Below, piece after piece: positions 331 to 64,000 of a DNA stretch of 64,000 bases (positions are counted from its first letter, which is position 1; each line of letters begins with the position of its first letter). The position numbers and the translations under genes were made by a program. Source of the stretch: Minisyncoccota bacterium (GTDB taxonomy: Bacteria > Patescibacteriota > Minisyncoccia > JAHIHE01 > JAGLIN01); the NCBI GenBank assembly GCA_028690055.1, contig JAQVBZ010000005.1, forward strand, positions 379 through 64,378. The letters are read 5' to 3'. Under the pieces are notes generated by a model. The model made no database searches and was not told the DNA's origin. It saw nothing but the letters and a program-made list of their open reading frames with translations.

Positions 331-2524
<2,194 letters not shown>

Positions 2525-34049: not shown

Positions 34050-34239
34050 AATTTTATTTCGCTTAATGATTAAGAATATCTAAACTCCCTGTTTCCTTTC
34101 CTATTGCATCTCATAAAAAAAGAAACAAAAATTTAAGCGGAGCTATTTTTAAAGAACCGTAATCAGATATCGTGCCGCTATTATCATATTTAAGAAATTC
34201 ATAATACCTTCATATCAGATATCCTTTGCCGGTAGTTGC

Positions 34240-36366
34240 CTACTTGCAAAAATTTATAAATTCATCTTTAGTAAGAGTTTTTTCACAACCTGCGACATAC
34301 TGAAAAATCCGCCAGCTATCATCGCGCAAAATCGGCAAGTAGAATATCTGCTCGGTGAGTTTAGACGCTTGCTTATACGCTTTTTTCAATTCTTCCAATT
34401 TCGTTTTATAGATATTGTTATCAAAACCACCAACCATACTGGACGAGATATTGACACTTTTCACTTCAAAAATATGCACCCGATCAAAACTATCTTTCAT
34501 CACAAAATCAGGATAGGAAGAATGCAGTGTTCCAAGATAATACTCAAACTTTATCGGCGAGTTAGCAACATAATTTTTACCCCACAGATATACTTGTTTT
34601 GTTTCTAAAAGTTCTGGCTCTTTTTCACCAAACAAATCAACCGCTCCAGCTTTCGGGTTCTTCTTGCCAACCTCTACTCTTTTACCAACTCGCCCATCGC
34701 CAACTACCACATCATCTTTTGCCAGGTCTTTTAATATCTCCGTCCATTCTCGCTCCGCCTCGCTATCAAAAGAAAATTTATCTTTTCCGTCGTTTCGTTT
34801 CCACACCCAATCGCCGATATTCATATAATTTCCATTGTCTGTATAGTGCGAAGTCGACGCGAAAGATACTTCTAAATCTTGCCCTTTTTCGTCTTTCACT
34901 ACTTCCATGCTTTTTTCATAATCATTCACATATTGACCGCTTTCATTTGCCACCGCCTCAATATTCTCGACAAACTCCCTCCATTTTGTGTAATTTATAG
35001 CATATTTTTCACCCATCTCTCTTACGCTGTTTTCGGCTTTCACAAAGTCTCGCCACAAAGTAAAAATAGAACTCGGAGCAGATACGACAGACTGTTTTTT
35101 CAAGAACGTCGCCAGACTAAAACTAGCTTTTTTAGTCAAAGGTTTTAGCCGTGTTGTTTTAATCTTGATCTCATCGGTGATGATTTCGCTGTCTTGCCAC
35201 AATTTCACGCCAAAACTCTTTCGCAAATCTTCGGGAACAATACCCCAAATCCATGCAGTCATGGCTAACTTTTGTGCGTCTTCTGATAATGATTCAAAAT
35301 CAAGTAGTCGCGGGTTGCGCCTTACTCGACCCATAACTTGCTCATCCAGCTGCTTACTCTTGCTATCCCGCATTTGGAAAAGCATACAAGCGCGAGGAAT
35401 ATCCCACCCTTCGGTGATTACCATTTTGAAAATAATAATATCAATCGTGCTGGAATTTTCTTTGGCATAATCTTTCCACTTGCTCACGGGCAGCTTTTTA
35501 GCCTTAAAAGTGTCGTTCGTATCGCACTGTTTCTCGTCGTTGACAATCAGCATCCATTTCAAATCCGTGTGTTCGGCTTTTGCCAGCTCTTTTTTTATCT
35601 CGGCAATTTCCTCGTCCGCCTTGTCTTTGTTGCTAATCTGGATAATGAGGCATGGGTTTAGGCCAAGCAGGTTGCGATATTCCGTTTTCACTTCTTCAAA
35701 CTTTTCAATCGCGCCAGCCACCTTTATATCTTGATCATCAATGAGTTCAATATCTTTTATCAATTTTGCATTCACTGCGTCATCGTTTTTAATCTCTACA
35801 TCGGGGTGTTGCCCACGCGAGAGTTTTGGTGTGGCGGAAAAATTGTATGTTTTGGTAAAAAACTTTTCTGATAAATTGTCCAGATTGTTGGTGGCAATAT
35901 GGCATTCATCTTTAATGAGGTAAACTTTTTTATCTAACCCGCCGGTGATTTTTCCACCAGTCATATTGTGCAAAAAGCCTTCCATCGCCCCTTGCATGAG
36001 TCGTCCGCCTTTTTTATACAAATCTCTGGGCAAAAGATAGACATTGTAATCAGTCGGCACGAACAACCGTTCTTCGCCCGCAATCTGGCTACTGATTAGA
36101 TACGGCTTTAATTCCAGGAAATTGCCTTTTGCCGAGTACTCTTGAAACTTCTCATAATTTTGTGTGGCTAAATCACCTTTTGAAAGCGTGGACACTAGAA
36201 AAATAACATTTTTGTCCACTGACAAAATGCGATTCATCATCTCCGCCATCATATAGGTTTTACCGCTTCCGGTCGGCGCCTTGAAAGTGATCTCATCTTG
36301 TGTGACAGTGAGTTCAATCAAAGCAGATACGGCATCTTGTTGTAGGTCTATGGCTTCTTGTCTCAT
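34240..36366 (-). CDS. res: Type III restriction enzyme Res subunit (SF2 helicase + endonuclease)
   Basis: 708 aa. Walker A APTGSGKTYMM, DEAH-like IKDECHIAT, helicase motif VI VMGRVRR. Immediately downstream of mod. Confidence 0.8.
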   Translation of the reverse strand: MRQEAIDLQQDAVSALIELTVTQDEITFKAPTGSGKTYMMAEMMNRILSVDKNVIFLVSTLSKGDLATQNYEKFQEYSAKGNFLELKPYLISSQIAGEERLFVPTDYNVYLLPRDLYKKGGRLMQGAMEGFLHNMTGGKITGGLDKKVYLIKDECHIATNNLDNLSEKFFTKTYNFSATPKLSRGQHPDVEIKNDDAVNAKLIKDIELIDDQDIKVAGAIEKFEEVKTEYRNLLGLNPCLIIQISNKDKADEEIAEIKKELAKAEHTDLKWMLIVNDEKQCDTNDTFKAKKLPVSKWKDYAKENSSTIDIIIFKMVITEGWDIPRACMLFQMRDSKSKQLDEQVMGRVRRNPRLLDFESLSEDAQKLAMTAWIWGIVPEDLRKSFGVKLWQDSEIITDEIKIKTTRLKPLTKKASFSLATFLKKQSVVSAPSSIFTLWRDFVKAENSVREMGEKYAINYTKWREFVENIEAVANESGQYVNDYEKSMEVVKDEKGQDLEVSFASTSHYTDNGNYMNIGDWVWKRNDGKDKFSFDSEAEREWTEILKDLAKDDVVVGDGRVGKRVEVGKKNPKAGAVDLFGEKEPELLETKQVYLWGKNYVANSPIKFEYYLGTLHSSYPDFVMKDSFDRVHIFEVKSVNISSSMVGGFDNNIYKTKLEELKKAYKQASKLTEQIFYLPILRDDSWRIFQYVAGCEKTLTKDEFINFCK

Positions 36367-36375
36367 AGTTATTTC

Positions 36376-38028
36376 TTATTTCTTTTCAAGGGTTTTGGTG
36401 GTGCCTTCAAAATTTTCACACACCCATTTTATTTTTTCATTCACTCCAAGCTTTTCCTTGCCATACAATGTTTCGTCAATTACATCAAAAGGAGTTTTAT
36501 CTTTTGTTGCTTCAAAATTTGCAACTGTTGAAATATCATAGACATCAAGATTATCGCCGAGAGGCTTGTTTTTCTCATTCCACTTGAAGTCTTTGGTGCC
36601 GTCATAGCACTCACCGGTCATCACCCGTTTAAGTCGTTTGCTGGTTGCGTCATACGCAATACCTTTTGGTGTGGCACTTGTTTTTTCATTATTTGTTACA
36701 AGAATAAACTGGCGATTTTGATTATCTTTATTCATTTCTAAAACGGCTTGTCCAGTTGTTCCACTTCCGGCAAAAAAGTCCAGCACAACTAAATCGGCTT
36801 CAACATCTTCACTGCTTTCACACAGTTTAATTAATTGTTTGATTAATTCTTTAGGTTTAGGGTAGTCAAAAATGCCTTTTCCCATAATAGCAGACAAGTC
36901 TTTGTTGGCGTTGTCGTTTGAAAATTCGTTATCAACGAGCCTTAATGTTGATACAGGAGCAGTTCTAGCAGATTCAATGACTTGATATTTGCCGCCAATC
37001 TTTACGATTTTCGCATTTTGATAAGTCTTTGTATAAATTCGGTCGCCCTTGACTTCGATAAAGCCTTGTTCTTTACCAAACTCATACAAGTCCTTACTCC
37101 ATCTCCATCCCCAGTCCGCACGCCCGTGCAAACCACTCTGTCTCTTTTCGTAAGCCTTTTTATCGCCACCAGCGTAAAAAACTCGTCCGTCAATTGAAAT
37201 AGGATAGTCAAGTGTTTTAACCCAACCTAAACTATCATAATCTAATGTCTGATTTAGTTTGTATCTTCCACGGGTTGCCACATATTCATCTTCATTTGAG
37301 TAACCTTCATCATCGTGCAGTTGAGCAAAAAGCCCTTTCTTTGCCGTGCAAGTATAAGACAAAACATAATCGTGATTGAGCGCAATGGCAGTTGAAGATT
37401 TACCGCCTTTTTTGGTAACACGAGGGAACGAACAAGCAAAATTACCCTCTTCAAACACTTCATCAAAAAGACCCTTCACATACGCCTGATTTTTGTCGTC
37501 AATACTACAAAATATCACGCCGTTATCACTTAAAAGCTGGCGGGCGAGGACAAGGCGTGGGTAAAGCATAGAAAGCAAATTGTCCCGAGTGATAGCGTTT
37601 TCATAATTCGTCTTGGCAAACTCGCCCATACTATCTTTGCCGTATGGTGGATCAATATAAATCACATCAATCATGCCGCGGTATTGAATCAATAGGTTTT
37701 GAAGCGCATCATAATTGTCGCCGATGATGAGCTTGTGCGTCAGGGCGTTTTTGTCTTGTACAAAACTTAATTTTTCATTTTTCTTAAAATGCTTTATTGT
37801 GTCGGTCATTTTCTCCAGTCGTTTGTCAAAATGAAAGCCGGTGCGTTTATAGGTGGTGCCGAGTTCGGCAATCATTATAGCCTCGTTAATAGTTTCGGCA
37901 TTTGTGATGAGTTTTTTCAAAAGATCGGCATTCGTCTTTTCGATAATTTTGTCGACAATACGCTTGTCAATCTCGGCGATGAGATCGTCTTTAACTTTTT
38001 TTATTTCATTTGTCATAGTCTTTTCCAT
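36376..38028 (-). CDS. mod: Type III R-M Mod subunit (beta-class N6-adenine/N4-cytosine DNA methyltransferase)
   Basis: 550 aa. Motif IV DVIYIDPPYG precedes motif I LDFFAGSGTTGQA (beta permutation). Gene order mod-res with a 9-nt gap. Confidence 0.8.
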   Translation of the reverse strand: MEKTMTNEIKKVKDDLIAEIDKRIVDKIIEKTNADLLKKLITNAETINEAIMIAELGTTYKRTGFHFDKRLEKMTDTIKHFKKNEKLSFVQDKNALTHKLIIGDNYDALQNLLIQYRGMIDVIYIDPPYGKDSMGEFAKTNYENAITRDNLLSMLYPRLVLARQLLSDNGVIFCSIDDKNQAYVKGLFDEVFEEGNFACSFPRVTKKGGKSSTAIALNHDYVLSYTCTAKKGLFAQLHDDEGYSNEDEYVATRGRYKLNQTLDYDSLGWVKTLDYPISIDGRVFYAGGDKKAYEKRQSGLHGRADWGWRWSKDLYEFGKEQGFIEVKGDRIYTKTYQNAKIVKIGGKYQVIESARTAPVSTLRLVDNEFSNDNANKDLSAIMGKGIFDYPKPKELIKQLIKLCESSEDVEADLVVLDFFAGSGTTGQAVLEMNKDNQNRQFILVTNNEKTSATPKGIAYDATSKRLKRVMTGECYDGTKDFKWNEKNKPLGDNLDVYDISTVANFEATKDKTPFDVIDETLYGKEKLGVNEKIKWVCENFEGTTKTLEKK

Positions 38029-38032
38029 AGTA

Positions 38033-38248
38033 TTATTTCATTAATTCATCAAGCGAAACACCGAGAGCGTCCGCAATTTTTTTCGCTGTGTCGATTCTCG
38101 GATCAGAAGTCGAGCCGGATTCGATTTTTGAGATCGTATGAAAAGCCAAATCGCTTTTTTTAGACAAAGTATCTTGCGACAATCCGGCTTTGAGCCGTAG
38201 CTTCTTGATATTTTCACCGATTTTTGATTTTTCCATTATTATAGACAT
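38033..38248 (-). CDS. XRE-family HTH transcriptional regulator (C-protein-like controller of the R-M operon)
   Basis: 71 aa. LRLKAGLSQDTLSKKSDLAFHTISKIESG helix-turn-helix. 4 nt upstream of mod. Confidence 0.65.
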   Translation of the reverse strand: MSIIMEKSKIGENIKKLRLKAGLSQDTLSKKSDLAFHTISKIESGSTSDPRIDTAKKIADALGVSLDELMK

Positions 38249-54406: not shown

Positions 54407-55696
54407 ATGCCTGAAAAGAAAAATAGACGAGAGGAATATTTAGAAAGTACAAACGAGGACAAAGAAATATATTTTTTTATTGATGAATTTCAAAAAATAA
54501 ATATTAAATCTCGGGAAGTGTATATCAAAACCAATAAAGTTATTCATCATCCATTTAATAAATCTGGAAACTTTAAATATAAAAAAATAACAGAAATTAT
54601 ATATGAAGGATTGCCAGATCCACTGCCTAGAGGTTTTATCAAAGATTGGAGGCTTGGGTATGGTTTTACGAAAGTATTGAATCCAATACTTTATTTGATT
54701 GAAACAAAATTTGATGTGTCGAAAGTTGTCGTGAAGCCAAAAGGAAAATTCATGATAAAAAATAGAACGGTATACCTTAGTTATGAAGATTTGAATAAGT
54801 TCTATCCGAAAATGGACACTCTTATGAAAGTTCAGAGTAGTCAAAAAGAAGCGTTAGTCTCAAAATATCTTAGTCAGTATCTACCTACAGAATTTAAAGA
54901 TAGTAAACAAAAATATATAAAAGGATCAATTTATTCGATTGTCACAGACCAAATTGGTAAGGATGGATCAATTTCAAAGGATGATTATGATGCTATGCTT
55001 GAGCTAGTTGTATCGAAGTCAAGCGAGCAAACGATTGAATCGAAAAAAATAGTTTTAGCCACAAAGGAAAAAATCGAAAAAATATTCTTAGAAGATGGGG
55101 TTAAAGATTTTAAAAAAATATTAATTTTAAAATCTGTTTCTGGAGGATTTGAGAAAAAATGGGAACAGTTTTTCAAGGAGAATACATGGATTATCTCCAA
55201 TCTGTTCTCTCTCCCTGCATTGCTGTTTGCTAATCAGGCTTATGTGGGCGGAAAGGAAATCTTCAATACTAATGGAAAAGTGACGGATTTTTTATTTAGG
55301 AACAAATTGACCGATAATTTGGCAATTATTGAACTCAAAACTCATAAAACTGAGCTATTGTCCAAGAAGCCTTACAGAGGAGATGATGTATACTCATTAT
55401 CCGAAGAACTATCTGGCGCCGTTAATCAAGTATTAGACCAAAGGCAAAATTTACTAAATGATTTTTATGCCTTAAGATGCAAAACTGGCAATACGAATCA
55501 ATTTGAATCATATAATTCTAGATGTCTTATAATCGCTGGTAAAATCGAAGATCTTCCTAAAAATGGTAAAAGAAGTTTTGAAATTTTCCGAAATAATCTA
55601 CATGGCGTTGAAATTGTTACATTTGATGAGGTGCTGGAGAAAATGGAAACTTTTGTTTCTTTAATTAAGACGGATGCTAAAAAAAGAAAGAGATAG
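54407..55696 (+). CDS. Large PD-(D/E)xK nuclease-domain protein (Shedu/DUF4263-like candidate)
   Basis: 429 aa. C-terminal half carries D...DNLAIIELK (hydrophobic strand + ExK) and ends ...GVEIVTFDEVLEKME. The family assignment is tentative. Confidence 0.35.
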   Translation: MPEKKNRREEYLESTNEDKEIYFFIDEFQKINIKSREVYIKTNKVIHHPFNKSGNFKYKKITEIIYEGLPDPLPRGFIKDWRLGYGFTKVLNPILYLIETKFDVSKVVVKPKGKFMIKNRTVYLSYEDLNKFYPKMDTLMKVQSSQKEALVSKYLSQYLPTEFKDSKQKYIKGSIYSIVTDQIGKDGSISKDDYDAMLELVVSKSSEQTIESKKIVLATKEKIEKIFLEDGVKDFKKILILKSVSGGFEKKWEQFFKENTWIISNLFSLPALLFANQAYVGGKEIFNTNGKVTDFLFRNKLTDNLAIIELKTHKTELLSKKPYRGDDVYSLSEELSGAVNQVLDQRQNLLNDFYALRCKTGNTNQFESYNSRCLIIAGKIEDLPKNGKRSFEIFRNNLHGVEIVTFDEVLEKMETFVSLIKTDAKKRKR

Positions 55697-55764: not shown

Positions 55765-56193
55765 ATGTTTTCTATAGGCAATATCTGTTCAATAATTTCC
55801 GTTCCATTTGCTTCATCCGCATCTTCTTTCTTATGGCAGATTATTCTCTTGCTATGGCCGTGGTACTGGCTGGGCATATTTCTCTTTCTTATTACATGGA
55901 TAATCTGGGAAATAATAACTCGTAACGGTACGGCACATTATAATTCTAAAAATGGCTTTTCTCCTTCTTTTAATCGTTTTGTCGGTAGTGGTACTTATGC
56001 AGGTTTGCAGGCATTAGTCTATTTATTTTTTGAAAAGTTTTTTGGCGATTCTGTATATTGCATGGTATGGCCATACGAAATTCATCTCGTTGTATTTCTT
56101 TCATCGGGATTGTTGCTACATCTGTCTGGATTTTGGCCTTATCTTTGGGAACCAAGCGGACAACGATACCACAAAAAGAGACATTATCGTTAG
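55765..56193 (+). CDS. Hypothetical membrane protein
   Basis: 142 aa, about 4 hydrophobic segments. Confidence 0.4.
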   Translation: MFSIGNICSIISVPFASSASSFLWQIILLLWPWYWLGIFLFLITWIIWEIITRNGTAHYNSKNGFSPSFNRFVGSGTYAGLQALVYLFFEKFFGDSVYCMVWPYEIHLVVFLSSGLLLHLSGFWPYLWEPSGQRYHKKRHYR

Positions 56194-56318: not shown

Positions 56319-57422
56319 ATGAACGATAAACCATATAATCACTTAAAGGATCGCATATATTACAGTGAACTTTACGATAAGCTTACTATCGAAAAATGTC
56401 AGTGGTGGGAGAAGCGCCAATATTCTAAAGACATTTCTAAACTAAAAGGCAAAGAAAAGGAAATCGAAGAAGCTAAAGAAAGATGGTTTCATAATGCGGT
56501 TATACCTATAGCCCTGTATTTTATTAAAGCAGATCGCGCTTCTAAGAAGTCTGAAACAATCCAAGGGTGGATGAAACGAGATAAAGAGAAAGACGAGAAA
56601 GTTATTAATGCCAAAAAACCGCAAGGCGTTCGGTGCTTAGGCTGTAGCTCACCCTTGGAAAACTGCATATCACGTGATCTTATGAATAATCATAAGGGAA
56701 AAGAAGAAGTGCTTTTTATGTTTGAATGCTCTAAATGCGGAAAACGCCGAGTTTATTGGGAAGATGGAACAGAATGGGAGCATAAGCCAACTTGTATAAA
56801 ATGTAATTTTGAAGTGCAGGCAGAGAGTAAAAGAGAGAAAGATATTATTATCCATATATGTTCTTGTTCACACTGCGGTCATGTGGAGACTGACGTATGG
56901 GATTTAAATGAAAGAAAGGAGGAAAAGATAGATCCAGACTTTGAAGCCAATCGAAAGAAATATTGCATTTCCGAACAAGAAGGATATGAAATTATAAGCC
57001 GAGCAGAACAGATGGGAAAATTAGTTGAAAAATTTAAAGATAAAGAAGAAAATAAAGATATTTATGATGCGGTTAGTAAAATTAAAAAGCTAAATATCGC
57101 AGAGTTACAAGATCTTCTTAATTCTGTGATGGAAAATAATGGCTATATTAAACTTGAATTTGAAAAGCCTGAATTTCAGAAAGATGTTATCTTGGGTTTT
57201 AGCCTTCAAGACAACAAGCCCGGTCGGGAAAAATATGACAGCGTTCACAATCTTCAAAAGCTTATAAAAGAGACTCTTACACCTACAAACTGGAGATTGA
57301 TGAGCGATGGAATCATATATCGTTTAGGGTTCCTGCAAGGCAGACTTAAAGGTATTGAAGGCGAAGAAAATCTCTTGAAACTAGTCGAAAACGACCTTAA
57401 GAAAAAGGCTAAAAGTAGGTAG
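56319..57422 (+). CDS. Multi-zinc-ribbon protein, hypothetical
   Basis: 367 aa with four CxxC pairs (CLGC, CSKCGK, CIKC, CSCSHCGH) and a Lys/Glu-rich C-terminus. Confidence 0.45.
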   Translation: MNDKPYNHLKDRIYYSELYDKLTIEKCQWWEKRQYSKDISKLKGKEKEIEEAKERWFHNAVIPIALYFIKADRASKKSETIQGWMKRDKEKDEKVINAKKPQGVRCLGCSSPLENCISRDLMNNHKGKEEVLFMFECSKCGKRRVYWEDGTEWEHKPTCIKCNFEVQAESKREKDIIIHICSCSHCGHVETDVWDLNERKEEKIDPDFEANRKKYCISEQEGYEIISRAEQMGKLVEKFKDKEENKDIYDAVSKIKKLNIAELQDLLNSVMENNGYIKLEFEKPEFQKDVILGFSLQDNKPGREKYDSVHNLQKLIKETLTPTNWRLMSDGIIYRLGFLQGRLKGIEGEENLLKLVENDLKKKAKSR

Positions 57423-57511: not shown

Positions 57512-57716
57512 TGACAATTGATGGCTGAAAGGCCAGGCTACCTAAACTCAGACTTCATGTCTGGGCATGGTGCTTCAAGACCCAACCAAGACACTGACCT
57601 CCACGTTCAGCGACTCTTGGTTGGGCTATGTCTGGAAACGGACATAGGGCCGCAAGGCCTAGCTGGCGTGGAGACTTTTGGATCTCTACGACCAGCTACT
57701 GCATAGCTGGTTTTTA
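57512..57716 (+). ncRNA. Candidate structured small RNA (GC-rich, >=6 hairpins incl. GAAA and GCAA tetraloops) ending in an intrinsic terminator
   Basis: Hairpins CAGAC-UUCAU-GUCUG, CCCAACCAAGA/UCUUGGUUGGG (11 bp), CUAUGUC-UGGAAACG-GACAUAG, GGCC-GCAA-GGCC, GUGGAGA/UCUCUAC. Long-range GCCAGGCUA/UAGC-UGGC pairing. Terminator CCAGCUA-CUGCA-UAGCUGG+U5. GC about 55% versus about 33% in the flanks. Confidence 0.4.
57692..57716 (+). terminator. Rho-independent terminator (CCAGCTA-ctgca-TAGCTGG-TTTTT)
   Basis: Perfect 7-bp stem plus T-run. This is the 3' end of the structured RNA candidate. Confidence 0.55.
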
Positions 57717-58385: not shown

Positions 58386-58569
58386 ATCTATATTTAGACG
58401 TTTAAAGAATACCCTCTGTATCTTCTTAGATCAGAGGGTATTTTTATTTGTTATGCCAACCAAACTCAATTCTTCGATAAGATAACCTGTATCTGTTCGC
58501 TCTTAGCAAAAGCTTAAAAGTGTGTCATTAATGGAGGCGTAGATTTAACTAAATAATCAACTAAATCAT

Positions 58570-59853
58570 ATGCTTCCATTAGAAACTAAGCTGAAATACT
58601 GCTTATATGCTAGAAAAAGCACTGAATCAGATGAGCGACAAGCCTTATCAATTGATTCTCAAGTTAAAGAAATGCTTCAAATAGCCGAACGAGAAAACTT
58701 AGAAATCGTTGATATCAGGAGAGAATCAAAATCAGCCAAAGACTCAGGTAACCGTCCTATCTTCAAAGAGTTAATCAAAGATATAACGGAAGAAAAGTTC
58801 AACGCTATCATTACCTGGGCTCCCGATAGACTTTCTAGAAACGCTGGCGATTTAGGATCGCTAGTTGATTTAATGGATGAGAAAAAATTAATGAGCATTC
58901 GTACTTTTGGCCAAACTTTTAGTAATTCTCCAAATGAAAAGTTTCTGCTCATGATTTTATGTTCTCAGGCCAAACTAGAAAATGATAATCGAGGGATAAA
59001 CGTAAAAAGAGGTTTAAGGGCAAGATGCGAGATGGGCTTATGGCCGACCTGTCCGCCAACGGGATACTTTAAAGAAAAGCGAGTTGATCATAAAGGACAA
59101 TGCTTAGTTGATCCTGATAGAGGTCCGGTAATAAAGCAAATGTTTGAGAAGGTTGCTTATGAGAAATGGTCCGGCCGAAAGCTTTATAACTGGCTTAGAT
59201 TCGATTTAAACTTTAGGACAGCTTTAGGTAAAAAACACTTAAGTCTCGGTAATATTTATCGACTTCTAGAAAATACCTTCTATTATGGCCCTTTTGAATA
59301 TCCTCGTGGTAGTGGTAACTGGTATCAGGGAAAACATGAACCGATAATCACCAAAGAAGTATTCGATTTAGTCCAAGAACAGATGAAGAATTCCCAACTA
59401 GTCAGACGAGAGAATATTGAGTTTGCCTTTACTAAAGTAATGAAGTGCGGTTTATGCGGTTCGGGAATTTCAGCCACGGAAAAATTTAAGAAGTTAAAAG
59501 ATGGCGGCTATAATCGCCATGTCTACTACGGATGTACCAAAGCAAAAGACAATAATTGTAAATCAGGCTATATTAGCGAAGAAGACCTGATTAAACAATT
59601 ACAAAAACAAATCGATAAATTGGATTTTAAAAAAGTTTCTATTCAAGATAAAATTCAGGGAGAAATCAAAAGATTCAAAAAGTTTCAAATCATGGCAACT
59701 GGCAAAAATGACAATATCGACGTAAGCGACGTCGATATTAAAAATTACATCAAATTCTTGTTAAAAGAAGGAGACGATCAAGAGAAACGAGAACTACTCA
59801 CATGCTTAAATGGGGAGATATTGTTGAAGAATAAGGTGATTGTGATTAAATAA
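58570..59853 (+). CDS. Large serine recombinase (phage-type integrase)
   Basis: 427 aa. Resolvase catalytic domain with YARKSTESDERQ (nucleophile Ser), recombinase domain, zinc-ribbon CGLCGSG...YYGCTK. Confidence 0.85.
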   Translation: MLPLETKLKYCLYARKSTESDERQALSIDSQVKEMLQIAERENLEIVDIRRESKSAKDSGNRPIFKELIKDITEEKFNAIITWAPDRLSRNAGDLGSLVDLMDEKKLMSIRTFGQTFSNSPNEKFLLMILCSQAKLENDNRGINVKRGLRARCEMGLWPTCPPTGYFKEKRVDHKGQCLVDPDRGPVIKQMFEKVAYEKWSGRKLYNWLRFDLNFRTALGKKHLSLGNIYRLLENTFYYGPFEYPRGSGNWYQGKHEPIITKEVFDLVQEQMKNSQLVRRENIEFAFTKVMKCGLCGSGISATEKFKKLKDGGYNRHVYYGCTKAKDNNCKSGYISEEDLIKQLQKQIDKLDFKKVSIQDKIQGEIKRFKKFQIMATGKNDNIDVSDVDIKNYIKFLLKEGDDQEKRELLTCLNGEILLKNKVIVIK

Positions 59854-59881
59854 CTTCAAAAATTAATTAAAAAAATAGCAC

Positions 59882-60619
59882 CTATTTAATCACATTCCAA
59901 TTATCGAGAAAATATCCCATTTCGTGATCCATATTACCGAGATAAATCTTCTCATCTCTAAATTTGATATTTACGCGGTAGCGTTTGCCGTGCCCGACTT
60001 CCAAAATTGCTTTTTCGTGGACTTTCTTCTCAACTTCGTGAAATGGCAAAATTAGAAAGTGATTTTTCTTTTCTCCGTGCAGGACGAAAATATAAAAAAC
60101 ATTGCCGTTACTATGTCGCTCAAAAGAAACTTTGCGGATATCAAAAACATAGGTATTAAATCGATTAATATTTGAAGTTTTAACCTGTATGCCAAATAAC
60201 TGATTATCTCTGACAGCCACAATGTCTATTCCGACATCTACGCTCATTATGCTGGCATTGAAACCACGAAAAAGGAGTTCCGAGCAAACAAGATGTTCAC
60301 CGCCTTTGCCGGTAAATCCACCTTCAATTACAATCTTTTCCTCCTCAGCCTTTTCCACCTCTCGGATTCTTGGTGTTTCTCTGATTTCTTTTTTGTTTGG
60401 GTTAAGGGCATAAGTTCCGGGGGCAATTCTTACAAAATCTGATCCTTCGCCTTTGGTTTTGATATCCACCACAATCTGCGCCTTCATAGTCGCTTCCGGC
60501 GTTGCGCCTTCGGTTTCCAGAAGGCCGGACTCCAAGGCTAAACGAGTGATTTCGGTATAGTGCAGAGGCTTTTTAGTTTTTTGCAATATTTCAATAGCGG
60601 ATTGTTTGAAGGTGTTCAT
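59882..60619 (-). CDS. HARE-HTH domain protein with C-terminal restriction-endonuclease-like (PD-(D/E)xK, Mrr-cat-like) domain
   Basis: 245 aa. N-terminal SAIEILQKTKKPLHYTEITRLALESGLLETEGATPEATMKAQI (HARE-HTH pattern). C-terminal E (GGEHLV) ... VDVGIDIVAV ... GIQVKTS. Confidence 0.55.
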   Translation of the reverse strand: MNTFKQSAIEILQKTKKPLHYTEITRLALESGLLETEGATPEATMKAQIVVDIKTKGEGSDFVRIAPGTYALNPNKKEIRETPRIREVEKAEEEKIVIEGGFTGKGGEHLVCSELLFRGFNASIMSVDVGIDIVAVRDNQLFGIQVKTSNINRFNTYVFDIRKVSFERHSNGNVFYIFVLHGEKKNHFLILPFHEVEKKVHEKAILEVGHGKRYRVNIKFRDEKIYLGNMDHEMGYFLDNWNVIK

Positions 60620-60625
60620 ATTGTA

Positions 60626-61516
60626 TTAACTAACGATGTTGTGTTTTTTAAATATATCTAGAAAAGTTGGAGTTGCAAACCCGAAAGAATAGTTAGCATT
60701 TAAGGTTTCAATAAAAGCTTTCTCCTTGTAGACTTTCAATTGTTTTGCATTCTCTTCAGAAATCATATTCTCTCGTTCATTGATTCTTATTGACCTGAAT
60801 CCCTTGACGATAGAAATAACTTTTCCCGTTTTTACATCAAAAATTGGGCCACCGCTATTTCCCGGGTTAAATGCAAGTGTAAATTCATATAAATAATTTG
60901 TTGTAGAAGTCTGGTATCGACAATTAACAACGCCTCGATCTGTTCGAAGTAAAATATTGCCGATCAGTGGCTTATTTATATCTCTTTCTTGAAATCCAAG
61001 TTCACAAAGTGGGTATCCGAGCACGCCAACCTCAGAGCCGATTGGTAAAAATTCTTTCGATATTCTTATAAAATCATTTCTATCGGCGAATATTCGATCA
61101 TTAACTTGATAAAATTCATCATCCAAATAAATAACAGCGAGATCAATATCAGGATAGATAAATATTTCTTTATCTAATTTTGGTTCAAAAATTCTACAGT
61201 GCCAATTATTATCATCATCGTGCCTCAAAAGATAATATTTATCGCCGTTTTGATGTTGGGCTAGTTCATCCTTCTCCGGATCATTTATAACATGTGCAGC
61301 CGTAACATATCGGTTTGGAGCAGCGATAAAGCCTGAACCCAAAGTAATCCAATTGATACTTTCTTGTTTGTCGATCTTAATTTTTCTGCCACGAACAATA
61401 ATATAAACAGATTTTTTTAACCATTTAACACATTCGGGAAACGAGTGAAAATTTTCCGGTCTTTTTGGAAGTTTTGGCCCTTGATATTTTTTATCTCTTT
61501 TATTCTTTTTAGGCAT
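60626..61516 (-). CDS. Trypsin-like (S1 family) serine peptidase
   Basis: 296 aa. His motif VTAAHVI, Asp in IDLAVIYLDDE, Ser motif GNSGGPIFD. Confidence 0.7.
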   Translation of the reverse strand: MPKKNKRDKKYQGPKLPKRPENFHSFPECVKWLKKSVYIIVRGRKIKIDKQESINWITLGSGFIAAPNRYVTAAHVINDPEKDELAQHQNGDKYYLLRHDDDNNWHCRIFEPKLDKEIFIYPDIDLAVIYLDDEFYQVNDRIFADRNDFIRISKEFLPIGSEVGVLGYPLCELGFQERDINKPLIGNILLRTDRGVVNCRYQTSTTNYLYEFTLAFNPGNSGGPIFDVKTGKVISIVKGFRSIRINERENMISEENAKQLKVYKEKAFIETLNANYSFGFATPTFLDIFKKHNIVS

Positions 61517-61536
61517 AAATCAAAATTTCTATAATA

Positions 61537-62073
61537 TTAAAATTGAAATGCTTTTTCTTTATATTGATTTATTTTTTCTGATAAACTATCAATCTCTTTA
61601 ATTTTTTGACGAATAGTTTTAGGCGTCATCGACACTTTCTTAAATTTCACAAATCCTTCATCTGTATCCACAACAATTTTCGCTCTAACATATCCATCTT
61701 TACTAAGCGATTGCCAATTTGCGTGAACAATACTATTCCTAAATGTATTTAACTCATTAAGTCGATTTCGTAGTTTATCCAAAATTGCTTTGTGTTTTTT
61801 GTTATTAAACGATTCTAAACGAACATACATCTTATAAAAAAGATCGATTTTATTGCTTGTCGTTAGTTTTTCAATAATTACGAATCCAGTTTCGTGGCTA
61901 TCATCATGCAAAAAATCTGCGATTGCGATGTTTAACTCTTGTTCTAAAATACTGAAACTAACTAGAAATTTTCCAATTAACAAGAAATATTTATCAGCTA
62001 CTTTTTCCAGATATTCTCCGTCTGAAAAATCATACTGTTCCATCTCATCATAAATTACTTGATTCGTATTCAT
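61537..62073 (-). CDS. HEPN-like (Abi_2/AbiD-AbiF-type) abortive-infection-like protein
   Basis: 178 aa. Conserved R-N-x-x-x-H (FRNSIVHANW) near the C-terminus of a helical domain, as in Abi_2 HEPN proteins. Confidence 0.45.
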   Translation of the reverse strand: MNTNQVIYDEMEQYDFSDGEYLEKVADKYFLLIGKFLVSFSILEQELNIAIADFLHDDSHETGFVIIEKLTTSNKIDLFYKMYVRLESFNNKKHKAILDKLRNRLNELNTFRNSIVHANWQSLSKDGYVRAKIVVDTDEGFVKFKKVSMTPKTIRQKIKEIDSLSEKINQYKEKAFQF

Positions 62074-62131
62074 AGTTCGCTGTTAGATGTTTTTGCTGAA
62101 ACAGAAGGAATAAATTCACGTTTTTAGCACA

Positions 62132-63295
62132 TTACCGATTTCCTTTTGCTCGATTGTGTGTCTTACACAACATCTCGCAGTTTTTAATATCACTCTTACC
62201 ACCCTTACTCCATGCCGAAACATGATCGGCGTCCATATCCGCAATACTCCAAATCTTGTCTTTGTTTGCATCGTGTCCAATCGCACAGTGAGAGCAGTTT
62301 GAAACACCCTTTTTCTTTGCGATAGCGGTTTGAGCTTCGTAAACTGAACGTTTAGTTGAATCCTCAAATACTCGTACTTCAAGAAGTTTTGTTTCAACTC
62401 CTCCACCTAAAACATACTCAAAAATGCCTTTTCGACTTTTTACGAAACCATCAGCATAGAGTTTTTTAACCAGGGCAGAGACGGTAGTTGGATTGAATTT
62501 TTTCTTGTGATAAGTTTCGTAAAGCCTGTTCCACTCCAAGCCTTTCATCTCACTTTCAACTTCAGTAAATGTACTTGAGACCCAATCAATAACAGTGTCG
62601 AAATGTTTTTTTAGTTCGGTAATATTTTTGTCATTGCGGTGCTTACTCATGTAACTATCGATACCACCACCAGAAACCCAATCTAAAGCCCGTTCCAAAT
62701 ATGCTTGGCGCTTTATATCACCTGCAATGTACGCGCCCCATTTAAGCACATTGGCATTTTGACTATTGCTAAATTCTTCGCGGCCACGAGTGACAAAAGG
62801 CCCAGAATATACTGCGTTAAGAATCTCTTGTTCGGTTAATGGTACGCCAGCGATGTTGATAGTCTTAAACCAATCCTTAATCTCAGGCTCGTCGCCTTTA
62901 CATATATACACCAACAATTTAGTGTTCATTATTTGCTCGCGCTGACTGGTGGCCATACCGCTGTAATACTGTTCGTGACCATTCTTGTCTTTAACAGCAA
63001 ACTTGCCTTTCACAAACCGACCAATGCTAGTGATACGTTGCTGTCCATCGAGCACTTCAAATTTATCATTGTCAACTTGGTTGAAATAAATTAAACCTAT
63101 TGGATAACCTTTCAAGATCGAGTCAATTACAGCAACATCACGTTTGCCGTCAGCGTAAATGTAATTACGCTGATACTCTGGTTGAATAGTCAGTTTACCA
63201 GAGAGGCCAAACAAACCCTTTCCTTCGAATTCGTTATATTCGAACCCGTCACAAACTTCTTTAATGGTGATATCATTCTTTAAGGTTGTTTTCAT
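62132..63295 (-). CDS. GmrSD-like DUF262 (ParB/NTPase-like, DGQQR) + DUF1524/HNH endonuclease protein (type IV restriction-like)
   Basis: 387 aa. N-terminal [10 protein letters not shown]...[11 protein letters not shown]-terminal HNH: HCAIGH...[32 protein letters not shown]. Confidence 0.8.
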
Positions 63296-63296
63296 A

Positions 63297-64000
63297 TTAT
63301 TTTTTCTTGTGCTTAATAAAAATTCGCTTGTAAGCCATTTTTGCTATGCCATCTTCATAAAAACCAGCAGTAGGATTGCCTTCTTTGTAAGCACCAGTGC
63401 CACCAGCTTTGTAATAGTCTTCTACAAATTGTTTTTTTAAACCAGGAGAGGTCTTATACTTATCATCTACGAGGCCGTTATCGCTTGTCCCTAAAATATC
63501 AAATTGTCCGGGTGAATATTTATCTAAAAAACTGATTGGTACGCCCATAACGCCGTTGTAGTCTTTCGGAATATTTTTTACTAAAGCAATTTCAATCGCA
63601 TCATAATTGTCATAGTGTACGAATGGCTTGTTTGTACTGAACTTTATAACATCGGCGTGAGTCATTAAGGGAATCGGTTGGTGTAGTCGTCCGTGATCAA
63701 GATTTGTAAACCAACGCACCCCTTGGACTCTTGTTATATAAGTCTTTTTACCTTTTTCGTCAGTCTTAATTTCACGCACTTGGTCTAAGTTTGCAACAGC
63801 TTCTGGAATCTCGTAGAACATTGCACCACCGTTAACTCTTGCATTGTTTCCGAGCCATACCTTATTCTCTTTGATCATTGGAAAAATTTCCTTATAGGTT
63901 ATTGCATTGAGATTACCAATGATTAGAAATTGCTTTTTATGCTCGAAAAGTTGCGTAATATATTCCCGAAATAAACTAAATGGAGGATTGGTGACTACGA
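63297..64000 (-). CDS. Adenine-specific DNA methyltransferase, C-terminal part (partial; N-terminus beyond window)
   Basis: The reading frame stays open upstream of the annotated Met to the window edge and encodes ...[47 protein letters not shown].... NPPF is motif IV of gamma-type/EcoRI-like N6A MTases. The stop lies 1 nt before the GmrSD-like gene start. Confidence 0.6.

Follow-up and report, generated by a model that had tools for sequence, protein, structure and literature searches.

Here we describe three adjacent genes, called A, B and C, in a 64,000-nucleotide (nt) stretch of DNA from a Minisyncoccota bacterium (contig JAQVBZ010000005.1 of assembly GCA_028690055.1), which we refer to as the window. 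Gene A encodes a HEPN-like protein, gene B a trypsin-like serine protease and gene C a HARE-HTH protein with a probable nuclease core. We conclude, with a probability of roughly 60 %, that the three are separate single-gene accessory defence effectors that have accumulated at the tail of a restriction-modification (R-M) operon, in a defence-rich region of a genome of the candidate phyla radiation (CPR; Pacebacteria). A first-pass annotation of the same sequence had proposed a three-gene module. As one conserved system the trio failed the co-localisation test everywhere except in near-identical copies. Since each of the three families is found elsewhere without the other two, each would appear to work without them.

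This conclusion depends on neighbourhood searches anchored on A, B and C in turn. The A-anchored set comprises 19 loci, gathered through two look-ups and by scanning species-representative genomes, of which about 15 are independent and extend at least 0.5 kb downstream; by tblastn, neither B nor C lies near A in any of the 19. What A does adjoin, in about 8 of 17 contexts, are R-M genes of diverse kinds, namely type I, type IIG, type III-like, C5 methylase with Vsr, and EcoRI-type methyltransferase with DUF262-HNH. A type I system precedes it at one locus only (L010), and in other contexts A is found among housekeeping genes. For B, dereplication of 80 metagenome loci left 60 contexts with a gene downstream and 54 with one upstream. 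C comes directly next in 6 of the 60 (it follows B at loci L020-L025, L027 and L028 only), and A adjoins B solely at L020, which is the same strain as the window (99-100 % identity). R-M genes lie within three genes of B in at least 23 of the 54 contexts with an upstream gene, and Pfam counts agree.

The association with R-M systems is most direct for C. Neither A nor B occurs near it in six independent C-anchored contexts (0/6), and in all six C directly adjoins an R-M operon, usually as the final gene. Twice C follows a type I HsdR gene, with a 12-nt gap or a 4-nt overlap; elsewhere it follows a gene for a type IIG enzyme of 1268 amino acids (aa) after a 5-nt gap, an AlwI restriction endonuclease (REase) with its methylase, or a series of methylase, HsdS and a small open reading frame (ORF), and in one context it is divergent from AlwI and two D12 methylases. 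The R-M systems adjoining C all carry amino-type methylases (N6_Mtase, Eco57I, D12, N6_N4 or EcoRI-type). Similarity among C copies spans exactly the interval from ATG to stop codon, and no conserved recombination sites were found flanking these copies. As a separate observation, loci L107-L110 contain a Peptidase_M78 and DUF4411 pair (positions 1330-2999) between hsdS and hsdR of the type I system that precedes a C homologue, so that here, too, a protease-type gene sits within an R-M operon.

In the window the trio resembles a module because of its recent capture, together with a recombinase, in a 3.6-kb block that a related genome also carries. Nine contigs encode the exact A protein, in two flank contexts, and the trio is found only with a 100 %-identical A. 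One context is the window's own (contig L122, 100 % DNA identity) and the other is that of L120 and of L121, the latter being the same as L020. When compared with the window by blastn, L120 and L121 are 96.6-99.1 % identical within the block; the similarity breaks at 62185, 53 nt inside the 3′ end of the HNH gene, and at 58557, just past the recombinase start codon. The upstream genes of L120, an N6_N4 methylase and a ResIII helicase, match window positions 34234-38083 at only 88-91 %. In L120 and L121 the A-B-C-recombinase block sits directly behind this type III-like R-M system, which is 24 kb away in the window. Given an identity of 96.6-99 % inside the block as opposed to 88-92 % for the R-M genes, and given the different flanks, the block has been moved or exchanged recently as a unit. 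That every trio copy carries the identical A points to one recent arrangement. No convincing att-like repeats were found at the block ends. At the A-side junction identity declines gradually, and the block includes a leftover piece of the HNH gene, so that homologous recombination is the better fit. Among the B-C loci, only L020, of the window's lineage, has this recombinase beside the pair.

Two further observations concern these loci. A hairpin repeat, GGCGCGCCAGTTnTCAACTGGCAC, is located exactly at the cassette borders, either after the C stop codon or before the HNH remnant preceding A, in L120 (3766-3789), L121/L020 (682-705), L022 (7189-7212) and L027 (7594-7617), with variants in L021, L023 and L025; the window lacks this repeat, and no Rfam family matches it. 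L022 also has a group I intron (Rfam RF00028, 79.9 bits; 344-551, plus strand) upstream of the type I R-M system that precedes B and C.

Gene A belongs to a HEPN-like family that is without a name, and its product is a stand-alone HEPN-like protein with a probable HEPN fold, and probably a metal-independent RNase. The R-N-x3-H signature noticed in the first-pass annotation (FRNSIVHANW; R112-N113-x3-H117) proved near-invariant in 66 distant relatives reaching down to 22 % identity: E44, N113 and H117 are invariant and R112 is kept in at least 90 %. The Rx4-6H pattern expected of HEPN proteins, with a polar residue following the arginine, is therefore present in A. The more specific label Abi_2 (AbiD/AbiF) had to be abandoned, as the window protein has no match to Pfam PF07751 and just one of the 66 relatives does (E 1.4e-3); one relative matches RiboL-PSP-HEPN (E 1e-3). 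The window protein matches no Pfam or NCBIfam family and has no significant match to any curated HEPN family profile. In PADLOC it shows weak matches to the HEPN regions of PD-T4-5 (3.4e-4) and Csx1/Csm6 (5.4e-4), and the profile matches among the 66 relatives are to Csx1/Csm6 (11), CARF_HEPN (5), Csx1 (4) and Cas13c (3). The AlphaFold2 (AF2) model, with a predicted local distance difference test (pLDDT) score of 86, is helical with one beta hairpin.

The family of A comprises 103 close homologues and 591 representative clusters in public data (E <= 1e-3), nearly all of them stand-alone proteins of 170-200 aa. An A-like domain is in addition fused behind Mrr_N in protein P0346 (288 aa) and behind HEPN_Toprim_N plus Schlafen/AlbA_2 in protein P0366 (568 aa), fusions which show that the domain is reused as the C-terminal module of other conflict-type proteins. 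A transitive link from A to Pfam HEPN_Toprim_N was considered and rejected, because the match in P0366 covers residues 1-200 and the A-like domain residues 392-564. Small ORFs upstream of A, considered as possible antitoxins, turned out not to be homologous to one another.

The assignment of B to the S1/PA-clan trypsin-like serine proteases is firmly supported by profile matches above cut-off, to Trypsin_2 (45.7 bits, cut-off 27.6; E 1.5e-11) and to Pfam Trypsin (24.2 bits, cut-off 20.6). The complete catalytic triad already reported for the protease, H75 (TAAHV), D125 and S221 (GNSGGP), is indeed invariant across 33 homologues. The N-terminus is basic, and no PDZ or other extra domain was matched. 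In the PDB, a sequence-profile search finds only distant relatives, among the HtrA/Spl proteases, and PADLOC matches (7e-11 to 1e-6) are to the protease domains of the retron-XI reverse transcriptase (RT)-protease, PDC-M35A and LmuA. On plasmids of cultured bacteria, relatives of B reach at most 26 % identity; A and C have no relatives there.

B homologues are further distinguished by what lies upstream of them. A protein with LexA_DNA_bind and Peptidase_S24 domains is encoded no more than three genes upstream in 19 of the 54 B contexts, and immediately upstream in 15, compared with none of 24 A- and C-anchored contexts (Fisher p=4e-4). These partners take two forms: stand-alone LexA-like proteins encoded 8-38 nt upstream of B, and LexA-S24 modules at the N-terminus of N6_N4, C5 or N6/Eco57I DNA methyltransferases that are divergent from B. 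The fusions with methyltransferases lie upstream of B homologues in L038, L040, L042, L055, L061 and L066, and we found no description of such a fusion in the literature searched. Aligned with an E. coli LexA reference sequence, the S24 modules keep an Ala-Gly or Cys-Gly cleavage site and the Ser/Lys dyad. In the S24-linked loci B has its own strong TTGACT-17-TATAAT-like promoter facing it. Downstream of the promoter, 10-20 nt before the B start, the conserved motif (A/G)GTTATCC(A/C)CA, which equals the DnaA-box consensus TTATCCACA or is one base off, occurs in L038, L040, L042, L044, L046, L055, L062 and L064. With its own promoter-like sequence and adjoining LexA-like self-cleaving repressors in relatives, B is probably switched on by a DNA-damage signal, and the arrangement suggests control of the DNA-damage type for B relatives. 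In the window itself, B lacks both an S24 neighbour and such an upstream motif, and some B copies have no R-M neighbour.

These neighbourhoods invite a bolder proposal, to which we give a modest chance at best. B would be a dedicated S1 protease of the cytoplasm that is coupled to R-M and answers to LexA-type modules sensing DNA damage. It would either turn restriction off once the host's own chromosome is endangered or act as executioner in a backup response set off by damage, and the A-B-C stack would form a layered fail-safe behind one R-M system. In the literature searched we found no published counterpart of B, that is, of a dedicated R-M-linked S1 protease.

For C, the earlier description was of a HARE-HTH domain joined to a PD-(D/E)xK nuclease core. 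The HARE-HTH domain is firmly supported (PF05066, 68.8 bits against a cut-off of 25.9, residues 3-72), and the N-terminal domain of the structural model matches the HARE-HTH domain of the RNA polymerase (RNAP) delta subunit with a probability of 0.96. A charged linker leads from it to an Mrr/Hjc-like PD-(D/E)xK core, which we consider probable: the E, D, Q and K of E108, D132 and Q145-V-K147 are invariant in 35 sequences, and a D…QxK core is an Mrr-type variant (PMC11037411). Pfam matches of this half stay below threshold (PDDEXK_5, 20.1 versus 26.1 bits, E 6.7e-4; Mrr_cat_2, E 0.034). The low-confidence model (pLDDT 68) has a predicted helix at 105-117 followed by three strands, and its similarity to Hje/Hjc resolvases has a probability of 0.9 but an E-value of 0.07. 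No PDB match was returned by sequence-profile search. The family counts 838 homologues, is 70-100 % conserved and is largely confined to CPR metagenomes; on viral contigs the C-like matches amount to two, both distant and partial.

Table 1. Features of the window discussed in the text, with positions counted from its first letter.
Feature	Position	Strand	Remarks
Gene A	61537..62073	-	178-aa HEPN-like ORF, ATG start
Gene B	60626..61516	-	296-aa trypsin-like serine protease ORF, ATG start
Gene C	59882..60619	-	245-aa HARE-HTH + nuclease-core (probable) ORF, ATG start
DUF262/GmrSD_N + HNH restriction endonuclease gene	62132..63295	-	Pfam GmrSD_N 1e-22, HNH 2.6e-6
EcoRI-type N6-adenine DNA methyltransferase gene	63297..64000	-	EcoRI_methylase 2.9e-38, profile positions 182-345; PADLOC MTase_II
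Large serine recombinase	58570..59853	+	Resolvase + Recombinase + Zn_ribbon_recom
3.6-kb block	58557..62185		Last 53 nt of HNH gene + A + B + C + recombinase; also present in a related genome, between different flanks
Shedu defence gene	54407-55696	+	SduA_C 7e-25; PADLOC SduA 1.4e-84
142-aa ORF	55765-56193		No family match
367-aa ORF	56319-57422		No family match
LOOT RNA motif (Rfam RF03000)	57539-57660	+	Full-length, 73.9 bits vs gathering score 46.4
Type III-like R-M	34234-38083	-	N6_N4 methylase + ResIII helicase; 24 kb from the trio

The genomic setting is summarized in Table 1. The methylase gene, the DUF262+HNH gene, A, B and C follow one another on the minus strand, A, B and C being preceded by gaps of 58, 20 and 6 nt; the co-directional arrangement with 20- and 6-nt gaps noted at first pass is thereby reproduced from the ORF coordinates. 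As no terminator-like sites were found in the gaps between these genes, the five probably form a single transcription unit. The product of the DUF262/GmrSD_N+HNH gene matches PADLOC REase_II over its entire length (8.4e-84). The 5′ part of the methylase gene lies beyond the window edge, and contig L122 extends the protein to at least 352 aa. The trio had also been placed immediately after an integrase. A recombinase does adjoin it, but it is a large serine recombinase, encoded on the other strand and convergent with C, 28 nt separating the two stop codons; its CcrB/XisF-type NCBIfam matches are sub-threshold. No tRNA integration site was found near the A-B-C genes. With the Shedu gene and the type III-like R-M system in the same window, the region is defence-rich. 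In the same neighbourhood, the LOOT RNA motif, some 0.9 kb away from the recombinase, has the 367-aa zinc-ribbon ORF on one side and a DUF4352 gene on the other.

Our preferred explanation is that three effectors were gathered one after another behind the methylase and restriction genes. Each would come from a widely spread, highly conserved family that moves between genomes alone and repeatedly lands beside R-M operons, and the trio would have been captured with the serine recombinase in the recently moved block. C may be an Mrr-like DNase whose HARE-HTH domain is predicted to read the modification state of DNA, so that its targets would be DNA beyond the reach of the neighbouring R-M enzyme; from its domain architecture and the literature it is predicted to be a modification-dependent (type IV) restriction enzyme. 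A could be a dimeric HEPN RNase, kept latent and released as a growth-arresting second line when restriction fails, by analogy with PrrC beside EcoprrI. B, as a cytoplasmic serine protease, would be a further effector or a regulator.

Several points weigh against this stack of independent effectors. The roles given to A, B and C are predictions drawn from published work on their domain families, and A and B are solitary, with no visible sensor or antitoxin to control them. For the HEPN fold of A, the structure libraries searched gave no significant match, and PDB sequence-profile searches returned no solved structure for it; the nuclease-domain model of C is poor (pLDDT 36-71), too uncertain for a fold call. 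The R-M counts near A and B are lower bounds and come partly from seed-based labelling. The spacing between B and C is exactly 6 nt behind at least five different upstream contexts, and the trio does move together within the window's own lineage.

The last two points are the starting ground for two of the alternatives. If B and C formed a functional two-gene unit of protease and DNA nuclease, with A an unrelated neighbour, one would expect what is seen at L020-L025, L027 and L028, where the exact spacing is maintained behind different upstream genes (type I R-M, EcoRI-type methyltransferase/DUF262-HNH and others) and where adjacency even outlived the replacement of C at L024, by an allele 71-78 % identical, behind a B of 90-96 % identity. 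However, the B-C pairs represent one lineage, with B 87-97 % and C 84-96 % identical between paired loci. The pairing is limited to B copies at least 84 % identical to that of the window; relatives at 79-86 % identity (L029, L031-L035, L053) and all more distant ones lack C, and equally similar C copies (76-85 %) stand directly behind R-M genes without B. We consider such a unit unlikely. One integrated three-gene abortive-infection system, in which cleavage by the protease would gate or activate the HEPN RNase, the nuclease or both, is more doubtful still, even though the genes are tightly spaced across gaps without terminator-like sites, the trio is intact in two different flank contexts, and protease-activated effectors are known from other defence systems. 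The protease-gated toxin module or novel abortive-infection system imagined earlier finds no support beyond near-identical copies: no A locus has B or C, 54 of the 60 B contexts lack C, all but the same-strain copy lack A, no C-anchored context has A or B, and the trio copies reduce to the one recent arrangement with identical A. PADLOC returned no multi-gene system for A, B or C, which speaks against an integrated system and agrees with the earlier judgement that the combination is not assignable to a named one.

The neighbourhoods of B and C also raise the possibility that the genes service the R-M system, B being a DNA-damage-induced protease that removes a restriction subunit (restriction alleviation) and C an auxiliary nuclease that reads the methylation mark. 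Restriction alleviation by proteolysis is an established phenomenon (PMC4231737; bioRxiv 10.1101/2024.10.21.619520), B is specifically linked to LexA_DNA_bind+Peptidase_S24 modules with intact cleavage site and dyad, and every R-M system adjoining C carries amino-type methylases. Against this, one conserved protease would have to recognise unrelated type I, II, IIG and III-like enzymes, and the B copies without R-M neighbours, like the window's own B without an S24 neighbour, do not fit; we judge this explanation to have a rather small chance of being correct. Least probable of all, and in our view very improbable, is that the trio is carried as cargo, or for maintenance (addiction), by a small element which the serine recombinase mobilises. 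The high identity of the block between two genomes whose other shared genes are more diverged and whose flanks differ is what such an element would leave behind, but its ends lack att-like repeats, the gradual A-side decay and the HNH remnant favour homologous recombination, and the recombinase accompanies the B-C pair at L020 only.

If the stack of independent effectors is the right explanation, the locus is another case of a published pattern, that of backup nucleases behind DNA-modification systems, extended to CPR bacteria. The locus also adds two unnamed families, the 178-aa HEPN-like proteins (about 590 sequence clusters) and the tightly conserved HARE-HTH nucleases. Modification systems accompanied by HEPN genes or by HARE-HTH nucleases have been described before, and the protease family is the least understood of the three. 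The protease is the more useful lead, since R-M genes and LexA-like modules are its repeated neighbours, a hint that organisms with very small genomes may control restriction through damage sensing.

Comparison with known systems places each gene differently. At least 16 HEPN clades are linked to R-M and have been proposed to behave as PrrC does beside the type Ic system EcoprrI, namely as latent RNases set free once restriction is neutralised (Anantharaman et al. 2013, PMC3710099). A shares with these proteins the R-N-x3-H motif and, in about half of its contexts, a position directly behind R-M genes. However, PrrC combines HEPN with an ABC-ATPase inside a type I hsd locus, whereas A is a 178-aa protein without an ATPase or other regulatory domain and lies behind a type II R-M system in the window, so that a PrrC-type assignment fails. 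Unlike the R-M-linked clades, A matches no curated HEPN family and also occurs among housekeeping genes, its RNase role and its tie to R-M being predicted.

The closest precedent for C is the group of fusions between HARE-HTH and REase-fold domains described by Aravind & Iyer 2012, as relayed in PMC4738411, PMC10853773 and PMC12839542. Such fusions are encoded immediately downstream of N6A R-M, Dnd and BREX genes and are regarded as modification-discriminating auxiliary or backup nucleases (PMC4738411, PMC10853773, PMC12839542). C has the same type of N-terminal modified-DNA-reading winged helix, a probable C-terminal PD-QxK-type nuclease and the same position immediately downstream of DNA-modification genes. 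It differs in that its nuclease domain falls below the Pfam threshold, with PDDEXK_5 as best match and a Hjc-like character, and in that its modification dependence is predicted. In functional terms, E. coli Mrr, whose gene lies next to hsdR, is the classical analogue.

B can be compared with two groups of systems. With the type XI retron RT-protease, Lamassu LmuA and PDC-M35A it shares the S1 fold, the intact triad and a defence neighbourhood. Yet B is stand-alone, with A and C as its only neighbours and no adjacent RT with non-coding RNA (ncRNA), LmuB SMC-like protein or PDC-M35B, and its PADLOC matches cover the protease domain alone. In proteolytic restriction alleviation, ClpXP acts on EcoKI HsdR and Lon-like proteases act on P. 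aeruginosa HsdR/HsdMS (PMC4231737; bioRxiv 10.1101/2024.10.21.619520). There, too, a protease is coupled to R-M and to signals of DNA damage or hypomethylation, in the same way that B relatives adjoin R-M genes and LexA-like modules, but the proteases known to do this are general housekeeping AAA+ enzymes whose genes lie elsewhere, whereas B is an S1 protease encoded beside the R-M genes themselves.

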